Positions 10,200 through 33,110 of a stretch of 64,000 nt of DNA are shown here, piece by piece; within the stretch, counting starts at the first letter, position 1, and every line of letters starts with the position of its first letter. Position numbers and translations under genes: made by a program. The DNA lies in NCBI GenBank assembly GCA_000002435.2, contig CM018793.1; one strand, written 5' to 3'. A model generated the notes under the pieces. It was not told the DNA's origin. It ran no database searches and worked only from the letters and a program-made list of their open reading frames with translations. The stretch is from Giardia intestinalis. Lineage: Eukaryota.

Positions 10200-13100
10200 C
10201 TAAAATCCGAAGTATTCAGCCGCAACACGTTGTATTTCACAGACACTTGCATCTGAGCCTTTCAATGACATGATTGCATCCAGAGGTGAACTGCCATTTT
10301 CTAAACAGAGTGTATGCTCTAGTGGAAGCAAAATCCTAACAAATGCAGGCTTACGTAACTCGATCGCTAAAATAAGCGCTGTCTTACCGTGCTTATCCCG
10401 AACCCCGTGCTGTATTGGTAATAGGGCCCATGCACGGGCTAGATCACCACTTACCACAGCTTGCATGAGCTCGGTGGTTCTAGAACCTGTGTTTGTGATG
10501 TCTACGTTAGTCACATCTGGGCACTCATAAGGTGCCAAGATTTCGGCGATACGTATGTGTCCTTTCTCCAGTGCGTGAACAAGTGCGGTCTTTCCACTGC
10601 TGTCTACAAGACCGGCCTCTCCATGAATTAGATATTCCACTGCAAATAGCCTATTATAGATTGCTGCAAACATGAGTGCGCTTAGGCCGTCATCAGTAAC
10701 TAAACAGAGTAGACTAAGATGCATACCTATCGCACGGGCGTCCCCATCGACTACAGCTTGCATGAGTTTTGTGAGTCCAGTGCGCTCTGTGCACTGACTT
10801 TTTAGTTGCAGTGTTCTACTAGCAGTGCGACTCTTTGCTCTGGTTATTGTTTGGCGCAGTAACGATGCATTTCTTGTCGGAGAAGGCGCCCTAGTGCTTT
10901 TGCTCGACTCATCGGATTGCGGTAGTTGCTGTGCCAACGACGGCCTTCGGGGAGGTACAGAGGGAATAATTATTGGAAGGAGCGTGTCTGTTTCCTGTCC
11001 TAACCTTGTCTGAGAGCTCTCAGAGGGCCTTGCTGATGCCATTGTTATTACTGTAGGGGTTTTAGATCTAGTTGTTGCTTTTAGCTCATTGCGGAAAAAG
11101 GTGAGCTCTTGTGTAGCTGTCTGCAGCTGGGACTTGAGTGCAGTGACTTCTAGCTCCAAGACTTTTATAAGTTTAGCTGTCTCAGTCGTGATGTTACCTT
11201 TATTGATCTTTTTAGTATAATGGTCTGCAAAGAACATAATTGCGTTATCTCTTTCAGCGATTGTTTTGGTCATGGTGTCTATTTCCATTTGCATAGCTGC
11301 ATGTTCAAGTTCGAGCTTAGCCAGTGCTTCCACATAATACTTTTGGTCTTCATTGTTGTCCTCTGTGCTGTCAGAAACATTTAGTAAGTCTCCTATTATC
11401 ATATCTGGTGGTTTTTGAACATGTGAGAAGGCCTTTTTCTTGGAGCTAACTGTCTCTGCCGAGACAGATTTAAGAAGGGCCTCTAGCTCTCGCCGGAGGT
11501 CATTAATGACTTGGTCCTTTTGTGCGAGCATCTCTTCGTGCTGTTGTCTCGTTGCTTGCTCTTCTGTAGTCTTGGTAGAACAAGGGGACTGTACGAGCTG
11601 TGGATAGAGAGTATTGGGGGACACATATAATAATGCAACAAGCCTCTCAATACAAGAATCTTTTGCGTGGAGCAAGCCTGAGTAGTCAGCAGGTTTTAGT
11701 GGAGGTTTTAAAGGCTGGAGAGTGGCAAGAGATGAGGATCTGGTAGGAGGATGAAGAGTTACTGAGAGTGGAGGATTGGGCGGATTAGGAACGGGGATCC
11801 TCCCTGTCCCACTCATTGGATTGATTTTTGAGCAGCTGGAGCTCCTCTTCAAGCTCTTATTGAGATCGTTTGTTCCGCTCTCATTAAAAAGCGTCCGTGC
11901 AAGAAGCTCAGTTTGGGCAGTGTAGCCAGAAAACTCCGCTTTGAAGGCTGTCATTTGCTGCTTTATCTCTCTGATTACATCGCACGACCGTAAGGTCTGA
12001 TCGAACAAGTCTTCAAGCCGGATATCTCGTTCGGTCCTTCTATCAGAAATGAATCCCTGCTGCTGAATGTCGACAAGAACCTTTTTATGTATTACTATTT
12101 TATCTCTTAGGGTCTTAATTTCCTGTGTGACCTCGTCAATGAGCCCTATAAGTTCAACTTCTTTTAGAATTTTTGCATCCAGTTCTTTGCATAACTTGGC
12201 TTCTCGCTTGCTCTGAGATTGTGGCTTAATGTCAACTTCAAACAGAAGCTTCTGTAGCCGGTCAATCTCCAAATCCTTTGTTCGTAAAAGGGAGCCATAG
12301 CTACAATCTTCTAACATCTCGTGTGGCACCTTACTTTGGATGACTCTTTGAGTGGAAGCTTCAGGGAGTGCCATAGTACTAATCAGATCCGTCTCCACAC
12401 AAGCATCAACCCTTCTGCTCGCAGAGTCTGGAACCAGAGATACACAGAGATCAATAAGCCGGTCGATAAACTCGTTCTTTGAAGTGAGTAAACCATCAGA
12501 AATTACTTTAGAAAAGCAGGTGTGTTCTGAATAACAAGATGTGCAGGCATCGATCATGGCAAAGCTATCCGTCATTAGGGTAGAGCGCCGCAGAGTCAAA
12601 GCTTCTAATTGGCTTTGCAGATAGCGTATCTCAGTATCCTTGCGTTCAAGGAGGGGGAGAATTGCACTAGAAGAGTGTGTAAGTCCCCCTTTTCTACCAA
12701 TCTTGCTTCCACACATGCCAGATTTAGATCGTTGATTTGTTTTCAGTAGCTCATATGGAAATGAATCCTTAGATGCCAGTTGTGATTGGACCGAAAGAAA
12801 CCCTTCAGGAATTTCATCACGGCTCCTCTCCATAAGCAAGGGATTTATCTCTTGATGATCTGGTTGCCCTTGCAGTTCAGAAGGCTTTGCGCTTACGAAC
12901 TTTGAGTCATGTGCATGCTTTTGCTTTTGTTTCTTATCTGCTTTTAGTGCCTTAGTAAGCCCTTTATCTTTAGTAGCTTTCTTTCGCGTTGGAGTTTGCT
13001 CAGGTATTTGGCTAGCTAAATTTGCATCTGGGGTTGGGGCTTTATCAACCAACTTCGCAATAGCATTGATAGTCTCATCAAATTCTGGATCAGAAGCACT

Positions 13101-13823
13101 GTCCGGTACACTCCTTTGACGCTCTACCGTTATGGTACTATAATCCAGGTCATCCAAAGCCACCCTAGGACTTTGAACACCTTGAGCGGGCAACATTAAA
13201 GACTGCATGGTGAACTCTGTGGTTAGAGCAGGCCCATCTGTGTCCTTACCAGTTCCACAAGCTTGTGGATCAACATCTCCTGTGTCAAAGTATCGCACAA
13301 CGGCATGATGGCCCTCGGTTTCCGCAAGCGTACGACTATAGATGCGCTCTTGCTTCGACGGTTTATACTGAGTTACTATTTCAACGACACATCTTAAATT
13401 TCCTGTCATAGAAGCGTAGTCAAGTGCATTCAAGTCGTGGTCGTCCGTCACTAGAGAAAAGTAATGTCGCAGTGTGACAAGGGCGTCATAGCTACCCACC
13501 TGGGCTGCAATCATATAAGCATCACGTTTGTCCGGTAAAATTATGTCTGCTTCGAGGGGAGCTAAGAGGCTACACAAATCCGCTGAGTTATTCAGCGCAG
13601 CCATGATGAGAGCTGTACAACCCTCATTATTTACCATCCCCACTTCATAGTCTATTAGGAGCCGCACAATCTCAGCATTTTTCATTTGCACAGCATATTG
13701 TAAGCCCGTTTCACCAAAATCACCACAAACACCTGCACACTCAGGTAGGAGGCGCTCTACCTCGCTTATGTCACCGCTCTGAATGGCACGAAACCACGTT
13801 CTAACCTTATTATCCCTACTCAT
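10200..13823 (-). CDS. Ankyrin-repeat / coiled-coil / ankyrin-repeat protein (Giardia 'protein 21.1' type)
   Basis: N-terminal and C-terminal blocks of TALM/AA-type ankyrin repeats (GCTALIMAALNN, GKTALVHALEKGHIRIAEILAP, GKTALILAIELRKPAF). They flank ~700 aa of heptad-rich, Ser/Lys-rich sequence. The track start 13826 is TTG; the real ATG is at 13823-13821 (MSRDNKVRTWF...). Confidence 0.8.
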   Translation of the reverse strand: MSRDNKVRTWFRAIQSGDISEVERLLPECAGVCGDFGETGLQYAVQMKNAEIVRLLIDYEVGMVNNEGCTALIMAALNNSADLCSLLAPLEADIILPDKRDAYMIAAQVGSYDALVTLRHYFSLVTDDHDLNALDYASMTGNLRCVVEIVTQYKPSKQERIYSRTLAETEGHHAVVRYFDTGDVDPQACGTGKDTDGPALTTEFTMQSLMLPAQGVQSPRVALDDLDYSTITVERQRSVPDSASDPEFDETINAIAKLVDKAPTPDANLASQIPEQTPTRKKATKDKGLTKALKADKKQKQKHAHDSKFVSAKPSELQGQPDHQEINPLLMERSRDEIPEGFLSVQSQLASKDSFPYELLKTNQRSKSGMCGSKIGRKGGLTHSSSAILPLLERKDTEIRYLQSQLEALTLRRSTLMTDSFAMIDACTSCYSEHTCFSKVISDGLLTSKNEFIDRLIDLCVSLVPDSASRRVDACVETDLISTMALPEASTQRVIQSKVPHEMLEDCSYGSLLRTKDLEIDRLQKLLFEVDIKPQSQSKREAKLCKELDAKILKEVELIGLIDEVTQEIKTLRDKIVIHKKVLVDIQQQGFISDRRTERDIRLEDLFDQTLRSCDVIREIKQQMTAFKAEFSGYTAQTELLARTLFNESGTNDLNKSLKRSSSCSKINPMSGTGRIPVPNPPNPPLSVTLHPPTRSSSLATLQPLKPPLKPADYSGLLHAKDSCIERLVALLYVSPNTLYPQLVQSPCSTKTTEEQATRQQHEEMLAQKDQVINDLRRELEALLKSVSAETVSSKKKAFSHVQKPPDMIIGDLLNVSDSTEDNNEDQKYYVEALAKLELEHAAMQMEIDTMTKTIAERDNAIMFFADHYTKKINKGNITTETAKLIKVLELEVTALKSQLQTATQELTFFRNELKATTRSKTPTVITMASARPSESSQTRLGQETDTLLPIIIPSVPPRRPSLAQQLPQSDESSKSTRAPSPTRNASLLRQTITRAKSRTASRTLQLKSQCTERTGLTKLMQAVVDGDARAIGMHLSLLCLVTDDGLSALMFAAIYNRLFAVEYLIHGEAGLVDSSGKTALVHALEKGHIRIAEILAPYECPDVTNVDITNTGSRTTELMQAVVSGDLARAWALLPIQHGVRDKHGKTALILAIELRKPAFVRILLPLEHTLCLENGSSPLDAIMSLKGSDASVCEIQRVAAEYFGF

Positions 13824-13845
13824 CAAACAAATTTATCATAAACCG

Positions 13846-13852
13846 ATTCACT
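13846..13852 (-). terminator. Putative polyadenylation signal AGTGAAT on minus strand
   Basis: Reverse complement of attcact. Lies 1 nt after the TAA stop (13854-13856) of the 1873-aa gene and 22 nt before the ATG (13823) of the downstream paralogue. Confidence 0.4.
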
Positions 13853-13853
13853 T

Positions 13854-16800
13854 TTAGACGGATCTGCTAGACAGAAGAGAGCTGAGAATATAGTGGGATG
13901 GCAGGTCCTTGGAGACGTAGAATAGTGCATCGTTCCCTTGGTTGTCCCGGATCTCTTTCTCTACTAGAAGAAGTCGCGCACAGGCTACATGCCCAGCTTC
14001 ACATGCATACATAAGAGCTGTCCTTCCTTCGGAGTCCTGTAACTTAGCTTGTAACCCAAGAAGATTGAACACTATGTATACATCTCCGTGGGCAGCAGCA
14101 GTCATTAGTTCCGTTCTGCGGTTTCCCTCAGATGAATAGACAGAGATATCTAGACCTTCCCAATTCAAGAGAAGGGTTGCAACTTTCAGATGATCGAGTT
14201 GGAGCGCTATATCTATTGCGCGTTTGCCATCTGAACGTGTCTTTCCTGCTTCAAACTCTGCCAGGTACTTAACAGCGGCAGGCACATTGTACTCAGCTGC
14301 CAGCATAAGAGCAGTCGTCCCGTTCTCCAGAGAGTATCCAATTTGCTGTAAGTTTGCGCCGATTGCCCTCATGTTGCCGGTCATGATGGCCTCCATCAAG
14401 GCAGTCGGATTTTTCAGAGGCTCGTGTGCAGATTGCTCACTGCTTCTAAGGATTGCTGTCACAATTGGAGCAACAGATGGTTTAATTAGACCAATTGAAA
14501 GCTGATCAAGAGGAGACGATGCTGCCACAGGGAATGCATCGAAGGAGTTACTCGATGGGATCTTCTCGTCGCCTGAAGATGTCCTAAGAACTGAAGCTGA
14601 TCTATATTCAGAGAGGGGATGTGACCTGGGCAGAAATACAGATGCTGGCCGTTGAGAAGATGACGCCCGAGATGCACCTGTTGCATGAACCTCGGCCATC
14701 AGCTGAGTGACCTGCCCATCTGCCTGGGCCAGCTGTTCAGTCAGACTCAGAATCTTTCCCTCAAGAAGAGAAACAGTCGGGTCGCCACTCTCTGCTGTAG
14801 GGTGCTTCTTAATATAATGGTCTGCAATTGTTGAAATAACGTTATTTTGGATTGAAATAGATAGATTAAGAATGTCAACCTCATTTGATAGCGCTACGTT
14901 TTCAATGACCAAGGAGTCTATGTCCTCAGACGGATGAGGACGTTGATCTAGAGAGTTTTTAGCTGCATCGTTGTCTAGGCTGCGATCTGCCATCAGCATA
15001 AGTAAATTCTGAAGCCTACCTATCTCAGCATCTTTAGCTAGCAATATATTTGACGCGTAGTGGAGTACAACGGGCTTTCCTGAAAGAGGGGATGGTTCAT
15101 GGAGCTGCTCGGTGGGTAAAGACTCGAACGCATCAGCACTATCACTAGGTTCTGGAGTTGCGTGTCGCGAAATTACATGCGCATCTTTAGAAGAAGAAGA
15201 AGGAGGAGGAGGGTATCTAATTGAGCTCTTAGGACGATCCGTACGTTCAAGTGCTTCCTCTCTCTCCTCTAAAAGATCAGTCGCCTTGGCAAGGGCTTCC
15301 TTTGTCTGGGCCAGCTCGGCACGAAGGTCACGTTCTAGTTCATCATATATATCATAGCACACTGGATCCGGAAGACGCGAGACCATACCATCCTGTGTTT
15401 CAGCCTCAAGGGCCTTCTGCAGCGATACTACTTGCATGGCCAATGCCTCCTCACGAGCAACATACTCCTGAACTACATTATCCAACATGTCATAGATGCC
15501 AGAAATCTTCTCAACAGTGTACTCTGCAAGCCTTTTGGAGACCTCATGAGCTGCAACTTCGTATGAGAGGAAGCCAGGAGGGTCTTGGAGAGGTTCAACC
15601 AGAAGGTCTATGGACACAGATGCATCTACCACATGCGTGGATACAGGGGCTATAGCACTAATGGTATTGGCTGTTGACTCACGCTGCACGGTGTTAGTAT
15701 TAATATTTTCTAACAGAGTTATAAGCCTCTCAATCTCGTCGTCCTTTTTGGCTAATATTTGAGAGTATTCGCGGCTAGAGGCTTGAGCTAGTAGTAGCTG
15801 TGTTGCCTGTAGTTGTGCCTCACGTTGCTCGCCAACGGTTCTTAGTTTGTCATTCTCTGACGTAAGGACTCTAAGTCTGCCTTCTACTTCCGCGATAGAG
15901 TTATCACGAGTTTCCATTGTGCTCTCAATTGTTCTGAGCTTCTCTTGCGTTTCCCGAAGAATATCCATGTCGTCACCATATGTTTGTACTTCTTTAAGTA
16001 GAGCACTGTTATCTGCTGTTAAACGTCTGATTTCGGCCTTGAGCTTATCTATTTCCAATTCTTGTTCGTTGGCAGCGAGCGTCAGTAGCCTGACCTTCTC
16101 TTTCTGGGCGGTAAGTTCATTGGTGGCGTCGGAAGCTGGCAAAGCGAGAGACAGTTGCTCCTCTCTTAGGGATCTAAGACGGAGAATCTCCTCATCCCTT
16201 TCTTGAATGGCAAGTTTCAAAGCGTCGATTTCTGCCTGTTCCGTGTTGATCAGATTGCCTTGATGAAATTGAGAGTTTTGAAGAGATGTGGACCGACACC
16301 TGCCAAACGCAGCTCGGCTTTTGGCTAAGCTGGTCGTGGAATGAACCATACTCGACGGGGTAGTTGCCCTGGACACACTTTTCTTGCTAGACCTAGTGCT
16401 TCGACTATCGGTAAGTTTAATGACTTCACTTTCTCCATCGAGATTGGGGCTGCCATTGAGAACTGCTGGTTGTTCTTGTGCTATGTTAACTGAGTATGCG
16501 CTGATAATATACTTCAAACGATCTATTTCTTCATTTTTCTCCAGTAGTTCTGCTTGCAATGATGTGATAGTAGCGTCCTTAGTTTGAAGCATATCCAAGG
16601 ACGCTTGCTGTGGAAGAGAAACTCCACCAGCACCAATCTGGACCCCTAAAATTGCGTTCAGTCTAGCTGTGGAGCTCTGCCCATCATCTGCATATGCACT
16701 GTCATGAGCATCTAGTACAACTGAGGCTGGCGGTGTAGCGATTCTGGCAACAACATCGCATAGTACTGGAGAGTCTTCTTTCATATCATTGAACACAAAA

Positions 16801-19475
16801 GCAAGGCATTCCTGATCTGCATTTTTAGTGGCGGACCTCTGCAGGCGCTCCTTGAGGTGAGTATTTTCAGCGACCAGCCGTTCATTCGTTGCCTTCAATT
16901 GCTCTAGTAGCTTTTTCATATTAGTAGCGTCATCATATAACGGGGGCGAAGTACATTTGTTCGACTCTCGCGTCAACTTTTCTAACCGATCGTTGTCTGC
17001 TTCTAGACCACGAACTCGCTCTGCCAGAAGCAGGACCTCGTTGGTTAGCCGAACATTTTCATCTGCAAGATCTTGAGGAATGCGCTTGCTTGAAGCAACA
17101 GGGGTCGCTGCTCTACTACGATCCTTTTTCTTCAATCTCCCCAGCGAGAGACTTCTCTTCGAGTTTGTCATGGTGTTGCCCATACTACCCATGCTTGCTT
17201 TTAGATCGTCTAACTCTTGGGTCTTAGTCTCCAGTTCGTCAAGCAACAATTGTATCTGTTTTGGTGACGTTTGTGAATGATCAAGATTGCCTGGATCTAA
17301 GTCAGGCATAGAGTTTATCACCTCACGGAGCCGCTCTATTTCTGCGTCTTTATCAGCAAGTAGTGAGATTAACTCACGTGTAGAGGAGATGGTATCCACA
17401 ACGTCTTCCATAGTAGAAGCACACAGGCTTTCTGACAGGCCCTTTACTCCTACCCTAGAATTGGCAAGAATCTTACAAAGCTTTGAGTCGTCATGTTGCG
17501 GCCTTTCGCTAAGCTCCTTCTTAAGCGTCTCGTTCTCCTTCAGTAGATCCTCCACCTCATGTTCTAAGGCCTTTATTTTATCGGTCAGTGAATCTATTGC
17601 AGCAGGAACAGGCATCTGCACCCTGTGTAGTTCTGTTGCATCCAAGAGCTCCTGAAGCTCGTTAATTTTGGCGGCCTGTTCCGCAATTACTTTGTTCATA
17701 AGCTCTTCCTTGTTAGTTTCGAGGGTCTTTGGGGTGATCGTGCCATCCGTTTCAACTCTAGCCAGCTGTTCTCTGAGAAGATGTATCTCTTTGTCACGCT
17801 CAGCAAGTTGGATGATTGTGTTCTTGCGGTATGCATCAAAGCTAGAAGATGACCGAGTGGTAGCATCCTTGCGCACAGATTTACCACGCCCAAAGAGCGA
17901 GGACGTGCTCAGTCTGTTTGAATTGCGACTCTTGACACTGGACTCTGCCTTCATTTCTTGATATCCTACTGTGGCCTGTAGGTCGCTAACTCCTCGAGAC
18001 TGATATTCGGAGATAAGCTCCTGAAGCATGGCGATAGTATTGTTCTTCTCGTCTATTATCTTGTCGAACTCTTCCGTAGTAACTATGGAGCAAGAGATAG
18101 GAGCGTCTTGCAAATCACCCAAATACTTCCTGTTTTGTCTACTAAATACATTTTCCGAGGGATCTGCGGTGCTTCTTTTTGGCCCGCACATCGGAGGTGT
18201 TCTCGGTCTGGACTTGTCCTTTAGCATGGCGGTGACCGACTTGGACCGACGCCGAGGCTTCTTAGCGCTCGAAGGCCGCAAAAACTCTAAATCCTCATAT
18301 ACTAAAATATCCGTGTTCTTCTGATTCTCTTCTTGAATATAGGGCTCATCAGATAGATGCTTCTGTCCGGTTTGTGCCATTTGCAACATGTGTTGGAGAT
18401 TCATGTTTTCCTGAACGGATAGTGCATACGCATCTTCCAGATGTCTGATCCTTTCCGTTAACTCGGCCATTGCTGATTCATTATCTAGACACGATAAAGC
18501 GTAATTGCCAATGGCTGGAGACGTACCAAACCCAATTGGTGATGTGGCCGTGGCAGTAGCAGCGGGCTCTGTTGTGGGCAAACAATAAGGATAGTTTGCC
18601 TGCTGGAGCTTTAGATTCTCCATCTGCAATGTTATTATCTCATTTTCTTTAATCTGCATAGAGTTGGTGAGCTCTGTGATCTTGTGCCTTAGCATGCTCA
18701 CTGTCTGTCCATGCCTGTCGTTGAAGTCGGTGACAGAGGAGGTTACTGACCCGACATACGACGTAGTCATCTGGGAAGCTGTTAGAGGGTTTTGCTGAGG
18801 AGTCCGCATGGGACTCGGAGATGACTCAGCGGCATAAACAGAGGTTTTGGTCTGAGGTTGAGTTGTGGACGGACGGTGTTTAGATGGAACAAATGCGTGT
18901 ACGTTAGATGTGCGGCGTGCATTATTTTTAAAAGAAACCAGGGCACGTTCAATCTCTAAAAATCTATTCTCTGAGGCCACGTTAATAGCATATTTGAGCT
19001 CGATGTTAGATATTCGCTGTGAGGACAGTATAATATTGACGCAGTCTAGATGACCCGAATTAACAGCATAGTCCAGGGCGTTGAGCCGCGCCTTATCCTG
19101 TCGCAACTTAAAGTTCTTCGTCATCATCAGAAGCGCCGCTGCGGCTCCAACTTGTGCTGCTAGCATGTACGAGTCTCTACCATCGTCGAGAGTGATGTCC
19201 TTCTCCAGGGGCGCCAAAACCTCACACAGGCCCGGATTGTTGGAAAGAGCAGCGACCATGAGAGCCGTGTAACCAGATGTACTAACTAGTCCAGCCTCAT
19301 ACGGGATTAGTATGTGGGCCATTTTTAAGTTCCCAGCGCGACACGCCTGAATGAGAGCAGTATCTCCATCAATGTTAACGTATCCTTTAAAGCTTTCAAC
19401 AAGAGAGCGTACGGTTTCTTGGTCTCCTTGCGCAACAGCGTGGAACCACGCTGCCTCGGAAGGTGATTGAAACAT
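13854..19475 (-). CDS. Ankyrin-repeat / long coiled-coil / ankyrin-repeat protein (protein 21.1 type), 1873 aa, tandem paralogue of 10200-13823
   Basis: The N-terminus is alignable by eye to the neighbouring gene: AAWFHAVAQGDQETVRSLVE vs RTWFRAIQSGDISEVERLLPE, DSYMLAAQVGAAAALL vs DAYMIAAQVGSYDALV, LNALDYAVNSGHLDCVNII vs LNALDYASMTGNLRCVVEIV. C-terminal ankyrin block (GTTALMLAAEYNVPAAVKYL, GRTALMYACEAGHVACARLLL, NDALFYV). More than 1200 aa of coiled coil sit between them. The ATG at 19475 was verified. Confidence 0.85.
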   Translation of the reverse strand: MFQSPSEAAWFHAVAQGDQETVRSLVESFKGYVNIDGDTALIQACRAGNLKMAHILIPYEAGLVSTSGYTALMVAALSNNPGLCEVLAPLEKDITLDDGRDSYMLAAQVGAAAALLMMTKNFKLRQDKARLNALDYAVNSGHLDCVNIILSSQRISNIELKYAINVASENRFLEIERALVSFKNNARRTSNVHAFVPSKHRPSTTQPQTKTSVYAAESSPSPMRTPQQNPLTASQMTTSYVGSVTSSVTDFNDRHGQTVSMLRHKITELTNSMQIKENEIITLQMENLKLQQANYPYCLPTTEPAATATATSPIGFGTSPAIGNYALSCLDNESAMAELTERIRHLEDAYALSVQENMNLQHMLQMAQTGQKHLSDEPYIQEENQKNTDILVYEDLEFLRPSSAKKPRRRSKSVTAMLKDKSRPRTPPMCGPKRSTADPSENVFSRQNRKYLGDLQDAPISCSIVTTEEFDKIIDEKNNTIAMLQELISEYQSRGVSDLQATVGYQEMKAESSVKSRNSNRLSTSSLFGRGKSVRKDATTRSSSSFDAYRKNTIIQLAERDKEIHLLREQLARVETDGTITPKTLETNKEELMNKVIAEQAAKINELQELLDATELHRVQMPVPAAIDSLTDKIKALEHEVEDLLKENETLKKELSERPQHDDSKLCKILANSRVGVKGLSESLCASTMEDVVDTISSTRELISLLADKDAEIERLREVINSMPDLDPGNLDHSQTSPKQIQLLLDELETKTQELDDLKASMGSMGNTMTNSKRSLSLGRLKKKDRSRAATPVASSKRIPQDLADENVRLTNEVLLLAERVRGLEADNDRLEKLTRESNKCTSPPLYDDATNMKKLLEQLKATNERLVAENTHLKERLQRSATKNADQECLAFVFNDMKEDSPVLCDVVARIATPPASVVLDAHDSAYADDGQSSTARLNAILGVQIGAGGVSLPQQASLDMLQTKDATITSLQAELLEKNEEIDRLKYIISAYSVNIAQEQPAVLNGSPNLDGESEVIKLTDSRSTRSSKKSVSRATTPSSMVHSTTSLAKSRAAFGRCRSTSLQNSQFHQGNLINTEQAEIDALKLAIQERDEEILRLRSLREEQLSLALPASDATNELTAQKEKVRLLTLAANEQELEIDKLKAEIRRLTADNSALLKEVQTYGDDMDILRETQEKLRTIESTMETRDNSIAEVEGRLRVLTSENDKLRTVGEQREAQLQATQLLLAQASSREYSQILAKKDDEIERLITLLENINTNTVQRESTANTISAIAPVSTHVVDASVSIDLLVEPLQDPPGFLSYEVAAHEVSKRLAEYTVEKISGIYDMLDNVVQEYVAREEALAMQVVSLQKALEAETQDGMVSRLPDPVCYDIYDELERDLRAELAQTKEALAKATDLLEEREEALERTDRPKSSIRYPPPPSSSSKDAHVISRHATPEPSDSADAFESLPTEQLHEPSPLSGKPVVLHYASNILLAKDAEIGRLQNLLMLMADRSLDNDAAKNSLDQRPHPSEDIDSLVIENVALSNEVDILNLSISIQNNVISTIADHYIKKHPTAESGDPTVSLLEGKILSLTEQLAQADGQVTQLMAEVHATGASRASSSQRPASVFLPRSHPLSEYRSASVLRTSSGDEKIPSSNSFDAFPVAASSPLDQLSIGLIKPSVAPIVTAILRSSEQSAHEPLKNPTALMEAIMTGNMRAIGANLQQIGYSLENGTTALMLAAEYNVPAAVKYLAEFEAGKTRSDGKRAIDIALQLDHLKVATLLLNWEGLDISVYSSEGNRRTELMTAAAHGDVYIVFNLLGLQAKLQDSEGRTALMYACEAGHVACARLLLVEKEIRDNQGNDALFYVSKDLPSHYILSSLLSSRSV

Positions 19476-19498
19476 CCCTATCTCTTTACTAAAATTTT
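19476..19498. promoter_or_regulatory. 23-bp AT-rich divergent intergenic core (ccctatctctttactaaaatttt)
   Basis: Lies between the ATG of the minus-strand 1873-aa gene (19475) and the ATG of the plus-strand ORF at 19499. Confidence 0.3.
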
Positions 19499-20191
19499 AT
19501 GGAGCTTGTGATAGAACCAGTTAAGCAGCATAGGCGCCAAACTCTGTCCACCCAGGTACGTGAGGGCAGGCAACAAGCAGAGGAGAAAGCCCGTTGTGTA
19601 GATAAGCAAACTGTCGACTGGAGCAACAAATCCTTTGCAACAATTCGATTGCCAGAGCAAAAAACCACTAAGTACGAGGATTGCTGGAGTTCGTTTTCTG
19701 ATACGTATACTGACATTGTGACGTCTGAATTCATAGAGCAAATCGAGAAACAAACTAAAGAACAAATCCGGATTAATGAACTCCCAAGGCAAAGCACTAC
19801 ACCTACAGTCGTCAACATAAATCCACCTTCACCAGAGCGGTCAACTGTCAATCAGAGAGCCTTCAAAAAATTAGCACAACCCCGAACGTATCGAAAAGGA
19901 TATCTGCCAACCAGTACAGTATTGTCTCCGACATTTGCATTTTGCAATAGAAGATACCTAGAGCACAGTCTCTCAAAGAACACAGAATCACCAAAATCAG
20001 AGAAGAAACGTGCGGAGATTATGTCCTGCAAACGATTAGCTCATTCAACGGATATAGCCATTCACTGGCATAAATATGGCGAGCATACAGAGTCAGTTCT
20101 TCATATAAACGCTTTTAGCCATTACGCAGAGCCACGTAAGGCGTCTTATGCTACAGGGACCATAGAGAAATCCGAGAAAGCTCTGGAATAG
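19499..20191 (+). CDS. Possible small hydrophilic protein, 230 aa, hypothetical
   Basis: ATG-initiated ORF filling an otherwise 675-bp gap between two minus-strand genes. An AT-rich tract sits immediately upstream. No domain seen. It overlaps the Raptor 3' end by 41 bp on the opposite strand. Could be spurious. Confidence 0.3.
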   Translation: MELVIEPVKQHRRQTLSTQVREGRQQAEEKARCVDKQTVDWSNKSFATIRLPEQKTTKYEDCWSSFSDTYTDIVTSEFIEQIEKQTKEQIRINELPRQSTTPTVVNINPPSPERSTVNQRAFKKLAQPRTYRKGYLPTSTVLSPTFAFCNRRYLEHSLSKNTESPKSEKKRAEIMSCKRLAHSTDIAIHWHKYGEHTESVLHINAFSHYAEPRKASYATGTIEKSEKALE

Positions 20192-28112: not shown

Positions 28113-28428
28113 AAAGCTATCGGCCGATTTTTTTAAAGAGAACCTAAGTTGTCACCGAAATTAGGTGCCTGTAGCTCTGATAGCAATGTGTCCTAGTTAT
28201 TTGCTCAACGAGACTGTGTGGGCCCAATATTTACTGAAACTTCTGTTTACTCGTTGAAAAATGACTCAGAGACGACTCACTATACATGGCGCATGTTTCT
28301 ATTAAGGACAACCAAGCGTTAGTAGCATAGAGGTTGCCGAAGGTAGCAATATTACAATATTTTAAGTTGATTGTATGGAGGCGGACACCCAATTACAAAT
28401 TTGCACTTAATTAATTGGAAAAAATCCG
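28113..28428. promoter_or_regulatory. 316-bp divergent promoter region between Raptor (minus) and the 946-aa gene (plus)
   Basis: AT-rich tracts abut both ATGs: ctttaaaaaaatcggccgatagcttt-ATG on minus and ttaattaattggaaaaaatccg-ATG on plus. Confidence 0.35.
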
Positions 28429-31269
28429 ATGCGTCCAGCCAAAAGGGGTAAGTCTCAACTGTCTAAGCAGACTGTTGCTGAATCATCTCCCCCGCAAATA
28501 GCGAATGTGCCTCTGCCGGAGAACAGCACTCAGGCGATAGGCGACCTCTTAGAACGTGGCGCAGATCTTTGCACTGCGTACTCACAACTTGCCGATCAAC
28601 GCACCTCTTTACTCTCTGAACAGTTAGAGCAATGCAGTAACCACGATCTTAAGCGCTACTATAGTCGGCTCAATGAGGAACTGACTCTAATCACCCAGAT
28701 CAGCTCGAGGTTGCGTGCAGATCTTAAGTTCATTGCAGCGCAGTCACAAGGATTAATTGTCATTAGCTCTAAAACCATGTCTGATGACCCAGGGCTCTCA
28801 TACAGTTCTTCTCCACCCAGTAAGATGGATGCGTCTGATAGATGTCATGGGTCAATGACCGAGTCAACGCTCCAGGCGTCGACGCGAAGGTCCACGCGCC
28901 TCACTCCCAGTGAGGTTGAGGACTCCCTGGTTCAGGAGTTTATTAGAAAAGGTAACGCGCCCAGATCTGAGGCCGTCAAGTATGCTAAAATTGCTATATC
29001 ATTTGACCCCTCTGGGTATGCTGTTGGTGGAGACAAGCGGAGCTATAAAGAAGAGTTCATTGCAGCTAACTCTGAAAAAATTAGGTTACACGCAATGTTG
29101 CGAGATTCGGAAGCAGAGGTACAACGCTTGAGGAGCTTGGTTGAGCAAGCGCCATCTGAATTAGAGACAAAGCAGCTCAGAGCCAAGACTGCTATACAGG
29201 AAGACAAGATTAACTCTCTTAGATCAGTTTTGTCAATCAGGGATGCATCTAGGACTCGTGACAGCGTTGGTGAGAGTGCCCCTGCATCTCGTCTCGACCA
29301 TGATTTGGTGGATGAATTAACTAAGGAGAACATGGCTTTAAGAATAGAATTGGATAATCAGATCTCTATTGCTAATGCTCAGAATAAAACACACAAGCAA
29401 GAAGTTAGAAAGTTGCGTGAAAAGATCAGTGCTATGCAAAGTCAAGCGTCTCAGGAAGAGAATAAGCCTCAGTTCAAGGAAGCCTCGACCACACCTCAAG
29501 CTTCGGGGCTGTTTGAATCTACTCTGGGTTGTGATACCGGGTATCCTTGTTCTGATGATGACTCTGTGGACAAGAGCTATGTCGCTGAGCTTGAGGATGA
29601 CTTGACTCGTGCGCTATCTCGCATACAAGCCTTAACGGAGGAGAGGAACGCCCTTCAGGCAGATCTGAATAACAAGCTTTCTGCCAAGGCTGAGACTAAC
29701 CTTACAGCTAACCAAGTCCAGGAATTGGCTGCAAACAACATGATTCTCTCTAACGCTTTAACTGCACAGCACCAGCAGCTGACGGCTGCTTTCGCTGAGC
29801 TGAATCAAAAGAACGCCGATCAGCTTGTCCTGCAAAATACCATTCAACAGTTGACAGCTCAGCGTGATTACAACTCTCAAGCAATACAGGCGGAGATGAG
29901 TTCAAAACTAGATGCACAGATCAAGCTATACACAGAGCTTAAGGCTAATTATGAAAGTGCATTGGAGCTTATACAACAGCGCGATGACACTATTCTTCAG
30001 ATGTCAAATGATCTTTCCTCAAATGATAGGGTCACCATGCGCTGTGATAGAGACAATGCACGGCTAGAGCTTAAGGAGTGCAACCAGCAGCTTACTGAAA
30101 CAAAGCGACTACTACAGATGGTCACAGAGGCCATGGGGTATGAAGGCGGCTTCCCAACCACAACTGATGTTGAGCTTTGCGTTTCTCAGCACCAAAGGGA
30201 CAAAGAAAAGAAAACAATGCTAGAAACTGAGTATGCCTTGGCAAAACGAAAAATAGATAGTCTGGAAAAGGAATTGGCTGAGCTTAAGTCAAGTAGAGAC
30301 AGTCTGCAAAGCGCTATCCCCCCTAAGGTAACCCCGGCCAGTGCTATTTCCGCAGCTATTGCAGGTAGCAATGAAATCATTACTCCCCAGGATGCACAGC
30401 GATGTAATACACTATCTAATACTCTCACAGTTGCCCAAGGAATTCCTGGAAGTGCGACTGATTTGATTCGTAGCATGCGGGTCACTGGGGCCGACTTAGC
30501 ATCGTTTCGGACTTCTTCCGTCCGTACCACCAACAAAGCTGGGGTCGCATATGCAAGTTGTGAAATTCTCAATAGTTACACGCCGTTAATGAAAGCAATC
30601 ATAGCCGGAAATAACAGTGCGGTTTCACAAACTATTAGCTTCATAGGAAAGGCGGCGCTTGACGGCACAACAGCCCTCATGCTAGCCGCAATATATGACA
30701 ATAAAGAGGCGGTAGAGATATTAGCACCCCACGAAGCGATGATGAAGAGAAACGACGGAGCCACCGCGCTTAAGTTGGCTTTGCAGACACGACACCTAGG
30801 TCCAGCATCGATCCTGCTTAATTATGAGGGACCTACACTTCCTAAACAATTGCCGGGCTATCCACGTGAGGTAACTGCTTTGATGAAGGCTGCAGAGTTA
30901 GGTGATGTGGTGCTGGTATTTAGCTTGCTCGCTTCTCAAGCTGGGGCGAAGGATGCAGATGGAAGGACGGCTCTGATGAGGGCTGCACGAGCTGGGTTTG
31001 CAGACATAGTGTGGTTGCTAGCTCCACAGGAAGCTGGAATGCAGCTCATTAACGACACAGAGCTTGGCCCGGGCTCAACCGCACTGATGCTGGCTGCAAA
31101 TCAAGGACACCTCGAGTGCGTGAAGCTTCTAATTGCTAGCGAGCGAAAGTATAAGAATAATCTGAACTACGATGCTCTTTTCTATGCTCAGAGTTCTGCA
31201 TCTCATGTCTCCCCGGAGGATAGAGCTTCTATCATCGCTTTGTTAGAAGAAGGGTCTGGCACCCACTAA
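28429..31269 (+). CDS. Coiled-coil plus C-terminal ankyrin-repeat protein (protein 21.1 type), 946 aa
   Basis: About 650 aa of heptad-rich sequence is followed by TALM-type ankyrin repeats (GTTALMLAAIYDNKEAVEILAP, GRTALMRAARAGFADIVWLLAP, STALMLAANQGHLECVKLLI). The C-terminal NYDALFYA motif is shared with the 1873-aa gene (NDALFYV). Confidence 0.85.
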   Translation: MRPAKRGKSQLSKQTVAESSPPQIANVPLPENSTQAIGDLLERGADLCTAYSQLADQRTSLLSEQLEQCSNHDLKRYYSRLNEELTLITQISSRLRADLKFIAAQSQGLIVISSKTMSDDPGLSYSSSPPSKMDASDRCHGSMTESTLQASTRRSTRLTPSEVEDSLVQEFIRKGNAPRSEAVKYAKIAISFDPSGYAVGGDKRSYKEEFIAANSEKIRLHAMLRDSEAEVQRLRSLVEQAPSELETKQLRAKTAIQEDKINSLRSVLSIRDASRTRDSVGESAPASRLDHDLVDELTKENMALRIELDNQISIANAQNKTHKQEVRKLREKISAMQSQASQEENKPQFKEASTTPQASGLFESTLGCDTGYPCSDDDSVDKSYVAELEDDLTRALSRIQALTEERNALQADLNNKLSAKAETNLTANQVQELAANNMILSNALTAQHQQLTAAFAELNQKNADQLVLQNTIQQLTAQRDYNSQAIQAEMSSKLDAQIKLYTELKANYESALELIQQRDDTILQMSNDLSSNDRVTMRCDRDNARLELKECNQQLTETKRLLQMVTEAMGYEGGFPTTTDVELCVSQHQRDKEKKTMLETEYALAKRKIDSLEKELAELKSSRDSLQSAIPPKVTPASAISAAIAGSNEIITPQDAQRCNTLSNTLTVAQGIPGSATDLIRSMRVTGADLASFRTSSVRTTNKAGVAYASCEILNSYTPLMKAIIAGNNSAVSQTISFIGKAALDGTTALMLAAIYDNKEAVEILAPHEAMMKRNDGATALKLALQTRHLGPASILLNYEGPTLPKQLPGYPREVTALMKAAELGDVVLVFSLLASQAGAKDADGRTALMRAARAGFADIVWLLAPQEAGMQLINDTELGPGSTALMLAANQGHLECVKLLIASERKYKNNLNYDALFYAQSSASHVSPEDRASIIALLEEGSGTH

Positions 31270-31279
31270 TATGGAAATT

Positions 31280-31286
31280 AGTGAAT
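31280..31286 (+). terminator. Putative polyadenylation signal AGTGAAT
   Basis: Lies 10 nt after the TAA stop at 31267-31269 and 18 nt before the next ATG (31305). Confidence 0.45.
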
Positions 31287-31304
31287 TTCTTTTCCTAAAA
31301 AATA

Positions 31305-33110
31305 ATGACGCTAGAGCCGCACATTCTCCACGACGAGGATACCAATGACAGCGAGCAACACAGGGCGGCGTCGTTTTCTGATGTCTATGAGCTGTGCAGT
31401 ATTCTGCGAGGCGGATTTTCACTAGCGGAATACTTAGTTAGGCATATATCCATTGGTGAGAAATTCCTATGTGTGGAGCTCGATTACGGGAATATAAAGC
31501 ATTTCAATAAGGAACTCTGTCTGGCACGGCTCATGAGCTTCATGGGTCACCAGCATGCTAACCATTTGACATACCGTGAGTTCTTTGCAGACGAAGATGC
31601 CAGAAAGATCCAAATTATTATGGAGCCTTACATTAATAAATGCCTTTGTGACGTGATAGACCAGATTTGTCGCAGAAAGCTTACTCTTTCAGACGACGCT
31701 ATATGGGGTATCATTGCGCAGGTGTTCAATGGGCTTTATTTCTACCATCAGACTGACATCAATGGATTTTGTGGGAAAACACCCATTCATGGCGGAATAA
31801 ATGCCGAGAACATATATATTTCGACTAACGGAGTTGTACAATTGGGCCCGTTTCGGCTCCTCCCAGATTTTGAAGATGACTTCGATAACCTGCAGGAAGA
31901 TAGCACAGTGATACTGCCAACAAGCCCCGGCTCCACAGTACAGTCGTCGTGGAATGTTTCAGATCTTCAGGCCCTTGGATGCATAGTCTATGAGCTCTTG
32001 ACGGGCATATCCTTGAGTAGAGACGAGCAGCTGCAGTACTATACTCCCTGCACTGTTCAGGAAGCAAGGAAGGGACTGCAGTCAGAGTTTGTGTCCGGGA
32101 ATCTCTTGCAATTTGTCAAGCGGCTTCTGGACGCATCAGTATCTTCTACTGCTGCGCTACTGAGTGTTGCAGACAACGAGCACTTGCTGGCAAATATTGA
32201 TTTTGCCAAGGATGTCATTGCAGCACGAAGTGTACATAACAAAGATCAAACCGCTTCACTGCGTTCATCGGTTACCAAAAATAAACATACACCATCGCCA
32301 GACGATCCAGTCATCACTATTCCAGGAGGAATTGCGTACATCAATGAGCTAATACAGGCAGCAATAGAACCCATTCTAATAGAGCAAACATATCTTAAAG
32401 ATGAGATTCAGAAGCAGAAGGACTTGATTGCGGAGCTGAGAGAGTGTCTGACGCAACGTACTCTAGAGATGACGGCGTCTAAGAAGGATATTTCTATGCT
32501 CCAGAGAGCTGTGCTCAAGCTCACATCGGGAGAACATAGGGAAAAGAGTGGAAGTTTACGAGCAACCAGTAATAGTACACGTTTCGGAACAGCTCCTAGA
32601 TCTCAGACTATCTCGTCTCGGTCGGGGACTGCAAGGATTTCGAGCGCACGGTCTCCGGTAAAGACATCAAAGTCTCCGCGGGCAACTCGGTCATCGGACG
32701 CAAACTCTTCTATGTCTGTACTAACCTTATCAGGTGCTAACGACACAAATGAGAAGCGGGCGTCGTTAGAGCTGAAGAAGTTGAAAACTCAAGTTGCGAC
32801 ACTAACGCGTCAACTATCTGATCGTGACGACGACATCCTTGAGCTCCGGCGTCGTCTGGAAAATTCCTATCAGCCACCTACAAAAGAATCAAAGGATTCT
32901 CCAGAGGAGACCGAAAGCCTTCGGGCATCTGCGCTCTCTGCCACGGTGCCTTGTGATGGCAGTGATGACGATGCACATTATGTTAAGTTCGTTTGCTTGC
33001 CCTGCAATCACCTTATTATACATAGGGTAAGGGAAAATAAGATCCATCTACACAGTTGCCCAAAGTGCTCGGGCGGTATAAGCAACCTGGTAGTAATCAC
33101 AGATGATTGA
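31305..33110 (+). CDS. Protein-kinase-like protein, probable NEK-family-like pseudokinase, with coiled coil, Ser-rich linker and C-terminal CxxC pair
   Basis: Kinase-fold landmarks are present but degenerate. The catalytic-loop position reads HGGINAENIYIS (HRD replaced by HGG). The DFG position reads VQLGPF. Subdomain IX is conserved (SDLQALGCIVYELLTG). There is no GxGxxG or VAIK lysine. Then coiled coil (LIAELRECLTQRTLEMTASKKDISMLQRAVLKL) and the C-terminal CLPCNHLIIHRVRENKIHLHSCPKCSG. Confidence 0.6.
   Translation: MTLEPHILHDEDTNDSEQHRAASFSDVYELCSILRGGFSLAEYLVRHISIGEKFLCVELDYGNIKHFNKELCLARLMSFMGHQHANHLTYREFFADEDARKIQIIMEPYINKCLCDVIDQICRRKLTLSDDAIWGIIAQVFNGLYFYHQTDINGFCGKTPIHGGINAENIYISTNGVVQLGPFRLLPDFEDDFDNLQEDSTVILPTSPGSTVQSSWNVSDLQALGCIVYELLTGISLSRDEQLQYYTPCTVQEARKGLQSEFVSGNLLQFVKRLLDASVSSTAALLSVADNEHLLANIDFAKDVIAARSVHNKDQTASLRSSVTKNKHTPSPDDPVITIPGGIAYINELIQAAIEPILIEQTYLKDEIQKQKDLIAELRECLTQRTLEMTASKKDISMLQRAVLKLTSGEHREKSGSLRATSNSTRFGTAPRSQTISSRSGTARISSARSPVKTSKSPRATRSSDANSSMSVLTLSGANDTNEKRASLELKKLKTQVATLTRQLSDRDDDILELRRRLENSYQPPTKESKDSPEETESLRASALSATVPCDGSDDDAHYVKFVCLPCNHLIIHRVRENKIHLHSCPKCSGGISNLVVITDD

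Follow-up and report, generated by a model that had tools for sequence, protein, structure and literature searches.

The window analysed here is a stretch of 64,000 nucleotides from Giardia intestinalis WB chromosome 5. It contains two head-to-tail genes on the minus strand, here called A and B, and, at some distance on the plus strand, a third gene, C:

10200..13823, minus strand: gene A, ORF of 1207 aa counted from the ATG (XP_001709363 / A8B623, Ankyrin repeat protein 1, assigned by exact-sequence look-up)
13824..13853, minus strand: intergenic spacer of 30 nt, with AGTGAAT at 13846-13852 and an AT-rich GATAAATTTG
13854..19475, minus strand: gene B, ORF of 1873 aa (GL50803_103810 / XP_001709362 / A8B622 / DAP103810, assigned by exact-sequence look-up)
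28429..31269, plus strand: gene C, 946 aa (GL50803_103807 / A8B619 / DAP103807)

The ORF coordinates confirmed the lengths, orientation and 30-nt spacing of A and B given by an earlier inspection of the DNA, in the following the sequence-only reading. The latter had also correctly assigned the DNA to Giardia. Gene B is annotated as Ankyrin repeat protein 1, with the older name Protein 21.1. The mechanically derived ORF of gene A opens one codon before the ATG, at a TTG.

Gene B is an already known, published disc protein, and the observation made on the sequence is real and largely known. The entry for GL50803_103810 gives 1873 aa, 206 kDa and the location 'disc edge, BA edge' (Hagen 2011 Table 1, PMC3243723). 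The published localisation of DAP103810 is the disc edge, the lateral crest and the bare-area ring, and the protein has been retained in the DAP inventories that followed Hagen et al. 2011 (PMC3243723). In the 2026 localisation atlas supplement, the accession-to-DAP mapping assigns gene B to 'ventral disc, lateral crest'. The published reverse GFP-cloning primer for B is an exact match to 13857-13882, the last codons of the gene, and the forward cloning primer matches 19647-19675; the four cloning primers that were published all fall on B and gene C. For DAP103807, localisation to the ventral disc body was published (Hagen 2011, PMC3243723), so that the proposed link to the ventral disc holds by published experiment for both B and C. 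In whole-cell proteomics, gene B was represented by two peptides only.

For gene A, a comparable record was not obtained. Searches of literature and supplements by accession and neighbouring IDs yielded no GiardiaDB number for it; its position in the older assembly would be about GLCHR05:1962468-1966091(-), as calculated by offset from the published coordinates of B. The 2011 disc proteome list, against which the sequence-only reading wished the genes to be checked, includes B and the 946-aa protein, but not A (PMC3243723). No localisation record for A was found, including in the supplement text of the 2026 localisation atlas as far as it was available, and the literature yielded no interaction or knockout data for it. 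Because no such record was found, A is not classed as a DAP.

The short spacer was examined for signals. B ends with a TAA at 13856-13854, and the distance of 22 nt noted earlier between AGTGAAT and the ATG of A was confirmed, with the motif at 13852-13846 and the ATG at 13823. The AT-rich GATAAATTTG element sits just upstream of this ATG. From general knowledge of Giardia, we take AGTGAAT to be the poly(A) signal of B and GATAAATTTG to be the initiator of A; a single spacer would hold both the 3' end signal of one gene and the AT-rich start element of the next. The spacers of L001 and L002 keep both elements (AGTGAAT / AGTAAAT and AAGATAAATTTG). The other intergenic gaps within the window measure 18-54 nt, and the 30-nt gap with its AGTGAAT is simply ordinary Giardia gene packing. 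An operon-like reading of the spacing was rejected, because such spacing is the norm within the window. Rfam and tRNA scans of the region gave no matches, and the antisense ORFs inside A and B are short and have non-ATG starts.

Both proteins can be divided into three parts:

13269..13823, minus strand: A N-terminal ankyrin domain, aa 1-185 (Pfam Ank_2 at 12-95)
10809..13268, minus strand: A middle region, aa 186-1005 (from AF2 secondary structure, heptad scan and composition)
10203..10808, minus strand: A C-terminal ankyrin domain, aa 1006-1207 (Pfam Ank 1045-1070; AF2 helices 1014-1199)
18921..19475, minus strand: B N-terminal ankyrin domain, aa 1-185 (Pfam Ank_2 at 11-97)
14421..18920, minus strand: B middle region, aa 186-1685, composed in alternation of helical/heptad segments and Ser/Thr/Pro-rich stretches
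13857..14420, minus strand: B C-terminal ankyrin domain, aa 1686-1873 (Pfam Ank 1817-1837, Ank_5 1813-1848)

Pfam identified ankyrin families only, at both termini of A and of B. The AF2 model of A is poor, with a mean pLDDT of 38.8, and its secondary structure alone was used, with caution. It places paired helices at 5-181 of the N-terminal domain, and in the middle region this low-confidence model predicts about 11 helices of 11-51 residues each, with non-helical stretches at 186-387, 647-714 and 918-985. A crude heptad scorer identified four segments in A; in total, heptad-like segments, which are interrupted, make up 12% of A and 21% of B. The middles are not the continuous coiled-coil rods of about 700 and about 1200 aa that had been assumed; they are composed of short helical segments split by Ser/Thr/Pro-rich stretches. 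The middle region of A comprises about 820 aa and that of B about 1500 aa; the B orthologue of G. muris, with about 760 aa, is about 745 aa shorter in this part than B. BLAST self-comparison of A and B revealed no long internal repeats, so that the extra length of B is not assignable to a recent duplication of modules. A and B belong to a subtype in which two terminal ankyrin domains, each of about 180 residues, flank a helical middle.

The similarity of A and B extends over both ends. With BLASTP, the N-termini, which the sequence-only reading had found alignable by eye, were 43% identical over 158 aa (E 6e-28), and the C-termini were 29% identical over 376 aa (E 2e-30), in an alignment extending into non-ankyrin sequence; such agreement is far beyond chance. 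Overall identity is about 30%. The outcome named beforehand as refuting the observation, a merely generic ankyrin similarity, was not observed, since both ends are collinear. Outside the ankyrin domains, A and B have in common one segment and a motif present in several copies:

11067..11333, minus strand: A shared non-ankyrin segment, aa 831-919, containing FFADHYTKK
14673..14930, minus strand: B counterpart segment, aa 1516-1601, containing TIADHYIKK
11469..12656, minus strand: span of the four LLxxKDxEIxRL copies of A, aa 390-411, 511-532, 715-737 and 764-785 (DNA 12591-12656, 12228-12293, 11613-11681 and 11469-11534)
14982..17816, minus strand: span of the six LLxxKDxEIxRL copies of B, aa 554-576, 703-725, 961-982, 1088-1109, 1238-1261 and 1475-1498

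In a BLAST search with the A segment against a family set of 160 sequences, matches were limited to A orthologues and B. Comparison of the two middle regions by hhalign gave 86 columns at E 9e-5, with a probability of only 59%; depending on the alignment, the common segment measures 86-115 residues. In the low-confidence AF2 model, every motif copy of A coincides with, or is close to, the beginning of a predicted helix. The motif is kept in the A and B orthologues, G. muris included, and was found elsewhere only as two single matches in 149 other family representatives, and not at all in shuffled sequences. Since the HMM for the motif derives from the WB copies, its recovery of A and B is circular, and weight is carried only by the orthologue matches and the absence elsewhere. 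The ankyrin domains of A and B are not mutual best matches, other members among the 149 representatives scoring at least as high, and in domain trees of these cluster representatives of the family, A and B were placed as sisters with 13-34% bootstrap only. The family search was performed exhaustively with HMMER; a word-indexed search with A had returned five proteins and missed B.

The pair is conserved beyond G. intestinalis WB. In G. muris, B and A each have an orthologue of their own (1128 and 1156 aa, respectively); these follow each other in the same tandem order and adjoin the same phosphoesterase and tRNA-synthetase genes. The B-then-A tandem with the same neighbours was also identified in two other G. 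duodenalis lineages. The A and B orthologues of G. muris are best matches in both directions and fall within the respective clades (A clade 100%, B clade 100/76% bootstrap). Gene A has a full-length, intact reading frame in WB, in both other G. duodenalis lineages and also in G. muris, with conservation of the ankyrin domains and of the motif positions in the orthologues. Between lineages, whole-protein identity is 75-81% for B and 74-78% for A, and that of the ankyrin domains is 87-98% for B and 85-89% for A. The N-terminal ankyrin domain of B is 97-100% identical in the three G. duodenalis lineages and 56% identical to that of G. muris (51% for the C-terminal domain). The near invariance of the N-terminal domain of B between assemblages points to a fixed binding partner. 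By these comparisons, A appears to be a paralogue of B that arose by a duplication older than the divergence of G. muris from G. intestinalis, and both copies have been intact and adjacent ever since.

In Giardia, a head-stalk family (GASP-180/GHSP), attributed to Elmendorf et al. in 2005, reportedly consists of cytoskeleton-associated proteins with an ankyrin head and a coiled-coil stalk. Compared by description only, these resemble A and B in pairing an ankyrin head with coiled-coil regions, for which A and B show the interrupted heptad-like segments, whereas A and B carry a second, C-terminal ankyrin domain and the head-stalk description is that of a head plus a stalk; GHSP-180 is GL50803_137716 (2011 disc proteome list, PMC3243723). 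The Protein 21.1/ARP-1 family is defined by ankyrin repeats as the sole Pfam domain, comprises 267 genes and is related to the NEKs (Xu et al. 2020, PMC7000408); for Protein 21.1/NEK proteins, coiled coils as well as ankyrin repeats of the TALM type were described (Manning et al. 2011, PMC3218828). A and B fall within this family, in which some members have coiled coils: both show ankyrin families as their only Pfam domains, both are annotated as Ankyrin repeat protein 1, and their repeats are of the TALM type, with starts in the terminal domains that read TALI, SALM, TALV, TELM and TALI in A, and TALI, TALM (four times) and TELM in B. No Pkinase match was found in either at E<=0.01 with Pfam, a search that a highly divergent kinase domain might escape. 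Many members of the family vary between strains, whereas conservation of the A/B pair is genus-wide, and compared to the wider family A and B carry the subfamily-specific motif and segment. Further head-to-tail runs of three to four genes of the same subtype are present around XP_001709283 in WB and as the TNJ27691/TNJ27692 array in G. muris. Like A and B, these lie on the same chromosome and are conserved between G. muris and WB, but they represent other paralogue groups and are devoid of the multi-copy LLxxKDxEIxRL motif.

A precedent is DAP7268, which, 'like 30 other DAPs', has an ankyrin domain at each terminus and an alpha-helical stretch linking the two, and for which truncation of either ankyrin domain changed the localisation (bioRxiv 10.1101/2023.07.04.547600). 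[quoted passage not shown]

The surroundings of the pair had been described as a neighbourhood of structural-cytoskeleton genes. Next to gene C lies a kinase-like gene:

31305..33110, plus strand: NEK-like pseudokinase, 601 aa (A8B618), without ankyrin repeats

Gene C, previously counted as a third family member, is a more distant member: it has a coiled-coil-like N-terminal part and a C-terminal ankyrin domain, but not the N-terminal ankyrin domain. The designation of the 601-aa protein as a NEK-like pseudokinase was borne out. It is kinase-like, although its Pkinase score of 28.5 bits is below the Pfam cut-off of 31.7, and GxGxxG, the VAIK lysine, HRD (replaced by HGG) and DFG are absent, from which the product is predicted to be catalytically dead. 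Its P15 orthologue is named 'Kinase, NEK', and in G. muris its orthologue is located directly upstream of that of B. The truly giant coiled-coil gene is the repeat ORF at 43194-63830+, with a repeat period above 500 bp (TRF gave no match, another repeat search was positive); the 2653-aa and 3049-aa neighbours do not qualify, the former containing a Raptor_N domain (Pfam) and the latter not being coiled-coil-like in the heptad scan.

With respect to the origin of the pair, the sequence-only reading had proposed that the tandem duplication was recent and that the coiled-coil lengths then diverged rapidly. A and B are indeed adjacent, on the same strand and built on the same plan. However, they are only about 30% identical, the search for internal repeats at the DNA level or over long protein stretches gave no sign of recent expansion, and G. 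muris possesses a distinct A and B in tandem, each grouping with its G. intestinalis orthologue, which also argues against an independent duplication in G. muris. The duplication is therefore not recent, and the proposal is hardly credible. It is likewise highly improbable that A merely duplicates B, is decaying and has no function of its own: its somewhat faster divergence and its absence from the disc proteome list would fit, but its frame is intact in all lineages compared and its domains and motif positions have been conserved. More can be said for A and B being non-sister members of a large family, adjacent by chance or by a tendency to form arrays, considering the 267 ARP-1 genes, the several members matching their ankyrin domains equally well, the weak bootstrap values and the additional arrays of the subtype. 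This too is considered unlikely, as the non-ankyrin segment and multi-copy motif are essentially confined to A, B and their orthologues, and the head-to-tail adjacency is older than the G. muris split. Overall, B is DAP103810 and A is likely its old tandem paralogue, both being double-ended ankyrin proteins with a helical middle.

A different question is whether the region of about 35 kb is a functionally organised, co-regulated neighbourhood of cytoskeleton genes. Both B and C have been published as disc proteins, the NEK-like pseudokinase and coiled-coil ORFs are nearby, and 4 of 12 genes are ankyrin or NEK genes, where about 1.2 would be expected given that these account for about 9.9% of 4,963 genes (P(>=4) about 0.02, before allowing for tandem duplication). 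This enrichment is attributable to local duplication, however, and genes for a Raptor-like protein, a class I aminoacyl-tRNA synthetase and an acid-sphingomyelinase-like phosphoesterase are interspersed, GL50803_16731 shows almost no heptad signal, and an inversion distinguishes the gene order around the pair in G. muris from that in WB. In Giardia, each gene has a short promoter of its own, which also speaks against co-regulation. The G. muris genome paper describes ARPs and NEKs as scattered, with no obvious clustering. Such an organised neighbourhood is very unlikely; the claim is weak because ankyrin and NEK genes account for about a tenth of all Giardia genes and other kinds of gene lie between them.

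For the old tandem pair, each protein may act as an elongated linker whose terminal ankyrin modules would bind to fixed partners within the lattice of the disc margin or lateral crest. Docking is proposed by analogy to DAP7268, in which the terminal ankyrin domains determine disc localisation. The middle would form a chain of short coiled-coil-type helices, several opening with LLxxKDxEIxRL, which probably pair two chains into homodimers or A/B heterodimers, while the Ser/Thr/Pro-rich linkers probably add length, flexibility and possible phosphorylation sites. The differing middle lengths would set the spans. The extended form of this model, in which A is a part of the disc margin or lateral crest, pairs with B through the LLxxKDxEIxRL helices, and forms length-graded flexible ankyrin-ended struts with phospho-regulated linkers that serve lateral-crest contraction, is tentative and rather doubtful as a whole. 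If it were true, A/B struts would contribute to the contraction of the lateral crest, which was recently described.

The locus is ordinary and was known before, and the details added here are small; these additions are modest and leave the current picture of Giardia biology unchanged. The helix-start motif and the segment specific for A and B are candidate pairing or docking elements, and gene A, a genus-wide conserved paralogue that has apparently never been localised, is a cheap candidate for tagging.

By exact-sequence look-up, the window was identified as DNA of Giardia intestinalis WB C6, and two of its genes as XP_001709363 / A8B623 (designated A) and XP_001709362 / A8B622 (designated B), both annotated 'Ankyrin repeat protein 1'; the orthologue of A in P15 carries the name 'Protein 21.1'. 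The genes and sites are located as follows.

10200-13823, minus strand, gene A, ORF of 1207 aa counted from the ATG (the mechanical ORF is one codon longer, opening at TTG)
13823, minus strand, ATG start codon of A
13852-13846, minus strand, AGTGAAT in the A/B spacer
13856-13854, minus strand, TAA stop codon of B
13854-19475, minus strand, gene B, ORF of 1873 aa
18921-19475, minus strand, N-terminal ankyrin domain of B (aa 1-185)
20151-28112, minus strand, GL50803_16734, 2653 aa, with a Raptor N-terminal caspase-like domain (47.5 bits, cut-off 27)
31305-33110, plus strand, kinase-like gene of 601 aa (Pkinase 28.5 bits, under the 31.7 cut-off)
43194-63830 and past the right end, minus strand, giant coiled-coil ORF of at least 6878 aa

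The sequence-only reading had placed the two genes 30 bp apart, with the ATG of A 22 nt beyond AGTGAAT, and both distances match the coordinates exactly. A spacing of 30 nt is ordinary for the window, in the unique part of which the remaining gene gaps are 18, 23, 25, 35, 38, 43, 47 and 54 nt, in addition to one 41-nt overlap and one 316-nt divergent gap. The spacer contains the AGTGAAT of B and the AT-rich GATAAATTTG immediately 5' of the ATG of A. Both elements are kept in two other G. duodenalis lineages, and we take them to be compatible with the usual Giardia 3'-end and initiator elements. Scans of the A/B region revealed no RNA families, tRNAs or credible antisense ORFs.

Pfam identified ankyrin families alone, at both termini of A and of B. 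Pairwise BLASTP bore out the proposed collinear homology, with 43% identity over 158 aa for the N-terminal domains (E 6e-28) and 29% over 376 aa for a C-terminal match (E 2e-30) that begins about 200 residues ahead of the ankyrin domain. Ankyrin similarity alone is no proof of a direct duplication, since several further members of the family, for which an exhaustive HMMER search gave 2921 cluster representatives (E<=1e-3), equal the A-B match in the ankyrin domains of A or B, and since A and B lie near each other in neighbour-joining trees of either domain, but with bootstrap values of just 13% and 34%. On these grounds, A and B might be neighbours without being direct duplicates. This is improbable, however, given a segment essentially specific to the pair, a motif that is nearly so, and the conserved head-to-tail adjacency, and a tandem duplication therefore appears to be the best reading. 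The segment, which lies outside the ankyrin domains (A aa 831-919, B aa 1516-1601) and includes ADHYxKK, matched A orthologues and B only, in both directions, in a 160-sequence family set, and was also picked up when the middles, without their ankyrin domains, were compared profile to profile (86 columns, E 9e-5, probability 59%). The motif, LLxxKDxEIxRL(xxLL), is present in four copies in A and six in B, at positions unchanged in the other lineages and partly so in G. muris; of 149 other representatives of the family, two had a single match each, and shuffled sequences had none. The motif model was derived from the WB copies, so that its weight rests solely on the orthologue matches and the absence elsewhere.

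This duplication had been called recent, which was refuted by the presence of distinct A and B orthologues in tandem in G. muris. On contigs of each of the two other G. duodenalis lineages, B is likewise followed by A, with identities to WB of 78% and 74% for A and 81% and 75% for B, and the downstream neighbours are again the phosphoesterase and tRNA-synthetase genes. Synteny extends to G. muris CM016927.1, where the order is Raptor-like (-), NEK-like of 604 aa (+), ankyrin of 1128 aa (+), ankyrin of 1156 aa (+), phosphoesterase (-) and synthetase (-). The 1128-aa protein has its best match in B (56% and 51% in the ankyrin domains, versus 42% and 38% for A), the 1156-aa protein aligns with A end to end (E 9e-126), and in trees the G. 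muris proteins join their G. intestinalis orthologues with support of 100% (A) and 100/76% (B). As judged from sequence, the G. muris tandem, the best-match orthology and the orthologue clades place the duplication before the split of G. muris and G. intestinalis. Compared with G. muris, the middle of B in G. intestinalis has about 745 additional aa, and no internal repeats accounting for this were detected; according to the G. muris genome paper, orthologues are generally shorter in that genome.

GL50803_103810, an ankyrin repeat protein of 1873 aa and 206 kDa, was localised as a GFP fusion to 'disc edge, BA edge', and GL50803_103807 (946 aa, 103 kDa) to 'disc' (Hagen et al. 2011, PMC3243723). 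Identity was tested on the DNA by aligning the primers from the supplementary table of that study to the window. The 103810 reverse primer matches exactly at 13857-13882, the final codons of B, and the forward primer aligns 172-200 nt 5' of the ATG of B, while both 103807 primers align to a 946-aa gene at 28429-31269; the sole differences of the latter three primers from the window are single-base gaps in homopolymer runs. Second, independent support is given by the supplement to a 2026 localisation atlas, in which GL50803_00103810 = XP_001709362 = A8B622 = DAP103810 is assigned to 'ventral disc, lateral crest' and GL50803_00103807 = XP_001709360 = A8B619 = DAP103807 to 'ventral disc'. B and the 946-aa gene product are thus previously published disc-associated proteins, and the suggested link to the disc holds for these two, with the literature placing B at the disc edge, in the lateral crest and at the bare-area ring. 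A is missing from the disc proteome list of 2011 and was not found in the accessible part of the atlas table. B is scarce, with 2 peptides in a whole-cell proteome. The genes, the family, the pairing of ankyrin and coiled-coil regions and these two localisations were published already; incremental are the description of A as a genus-wide conserved paralogue without localisation, the ancient duplication, the specific motif and segment common to A and B, and a nearly invariant N-terminal domain in B.

This last domain is 97-100% identical among three G. duodenalis lineages (75-81% for whole B) and the equivalent domain of A 85-86%, pointing to a much stronger constraint in B. Between lineages, sequence is conserved in the ankyrin domains and in the helices that carry the motif, whereas the linkers have diverged. 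Coiled-coil rods of about 700 and 1200 aa had been proposed for the middles, which instead proved to be interrupted: blocks rich in Glu/Leu/Lys/Gln alternate with blocks rich in Ser/Thr/Pro/Gly, and a crude 28-residue scorer found four heptad segments in A (12% of residues) and nine in B (21%; shuffled about 2%). Consistent with this is the secondary structure of an AlphaFold2 model of A, used at low confidence (mean pLDDT 38.8). In it, the helix pairs of the ankyrin domains occupy 5-181 and 1014-1199, while the part in between has about eleven helices, each 11-51 residues long, and extended regions without structure (186-387, 647-714 and 918-985). The four motif copies of A lie at or near the starts of predicted helices. 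We presume a resemblance of LLxxKDxEIxRL to coiled-coil 'trigger' sequences, e.g. GCN4 E-V-x-R-L-x-x-L, as a lead only. A and B may be elongated linkers, whose terminal ankyrin modules would dock onto fixed partners, while the helical segments of the middle would bring chains together in pairs and determine span and flexibility. Docking is suggested by DAP7268, a protein built on this ANK-helical-ANK plan 'like 30 other DAPs', in which truncation of an ankyrin domain changes disc localisation (bioRxiv 10.1101/2023.07.04.547600).

The surroundings had been regarded as a neighbourhood of structural-cytoskeleton genes. Ankyrin and NEK genes make up 489 of 4,963 genes, so that about 1.2 are expected among 12 genes; for four, P is about 0.02, with local duplication not yet allowed for. 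Raptor-like, synthetase and phosphoesterase genes lie among them, and further conserved tandem arrays of the same subfamily exist, G. muris having a run of four genes and WB a run of three. Local duplication in a huge family, not functional clustering, accounts best for the neighbourhood. The second array, on the same chromosomes as A/B, consists of head-to-tail double-ended ankyrin genes of 590, 907, 922 and 804 aa in G. muris (L006, 8119-17969) and of 1028, 933 and 836 aa in G. intestinalis (L007, 4623-13317). It adjoins CAP-Gly and proteasome-subunit genes, and some of its genes are, by ankyrin domain, the nearest relatives that A, B and the 946-aa gene have.

The 946-aa gene, taken for a third family member, has a specific C-terminal ankyrin domain in common with B (30% over 356 aa), but lacks the N-terminal ankyrin domain and the LLxxKDxEIxRL motif and does not group with A/B in trees. 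The label 'NEK-like pseudokinase' is fair for the 601-aa protein, in which the Pkinase score is weak, the glycine loop, VAIK lysine and DFG are missing and HGG replaces HRD. Its last approximately 40 codons include a Cys/His-rich CLPCNHLIIHRVRENKIHLHSCPKC, which looks like a small zinc-binding or RING-like motif and received no Pfam call; C-terminal RING domains are mentioned for some NEK/21.1 proteins (kinome paper, PMC3218828). GL50803_16734 goes by 'hypothetical' in the WB annotation and by 'WD-repeat family protein' in that of DH; it has a syntenic orthologue in G. muris and is probably a Giardia Raptor homologue rather than a cytoskeletal protein. Its 3' end overlaps that of GL50803_5497 (+, 230 aa, without a match in a Pfam search) by 41 nt at 20151-20191. 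A is flanked by genes for a class I aminoacyl-tRNA synthetase and an acid-sphingomyelinase-like phosphoesterase.

Relative to G. muris, the WB order at 13854-33110 fits an inversion of the block made up of the NEK-like gene, the 946-aa ankyrin gene and the Raptor-like gene. In G. muris (L005, CM016927.1, 1-13471), the NEK-like pseudokinase gene shares its strand with the B orthologue, which it directly precedes on the upstream side, and the Raptor-like gene comes before it on the opposite strand; no counterpart of the 946-aa gene was found at the corresponding place. The 316-nt divergent spacer at 28113-28428 between the Raptor-like gene and DAP103807 falls at one edge of this block, and no other intergenic region in the window's unique part is long.

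Of the other supposed coiled-coil genes, the 262-aa protein does have coiled-coil matches, but weak ones, and GL50803_16731 (3049 aa) has almost no heptad signal. The giant coiled-coil gene is not GL50803_16731 but the repeat ORF at 43194-63830 and past the right end, in which at least 13 units, each 1509 or 1698 bp long (503 or 566 aa), follow one another in tandem and are 100% identical across the 300-nt probes. Its GC content is 0.60-0.66, versus 0.42-0.49 elsewhere, with an AT skew of -0.35. Pfam gave generic coiled-coil matches only, and the ORF translates into a coiled-coil sequence rich in Ala, Glu, Arg and Leu, of which the C-terminal part is distinct and AT-richer.
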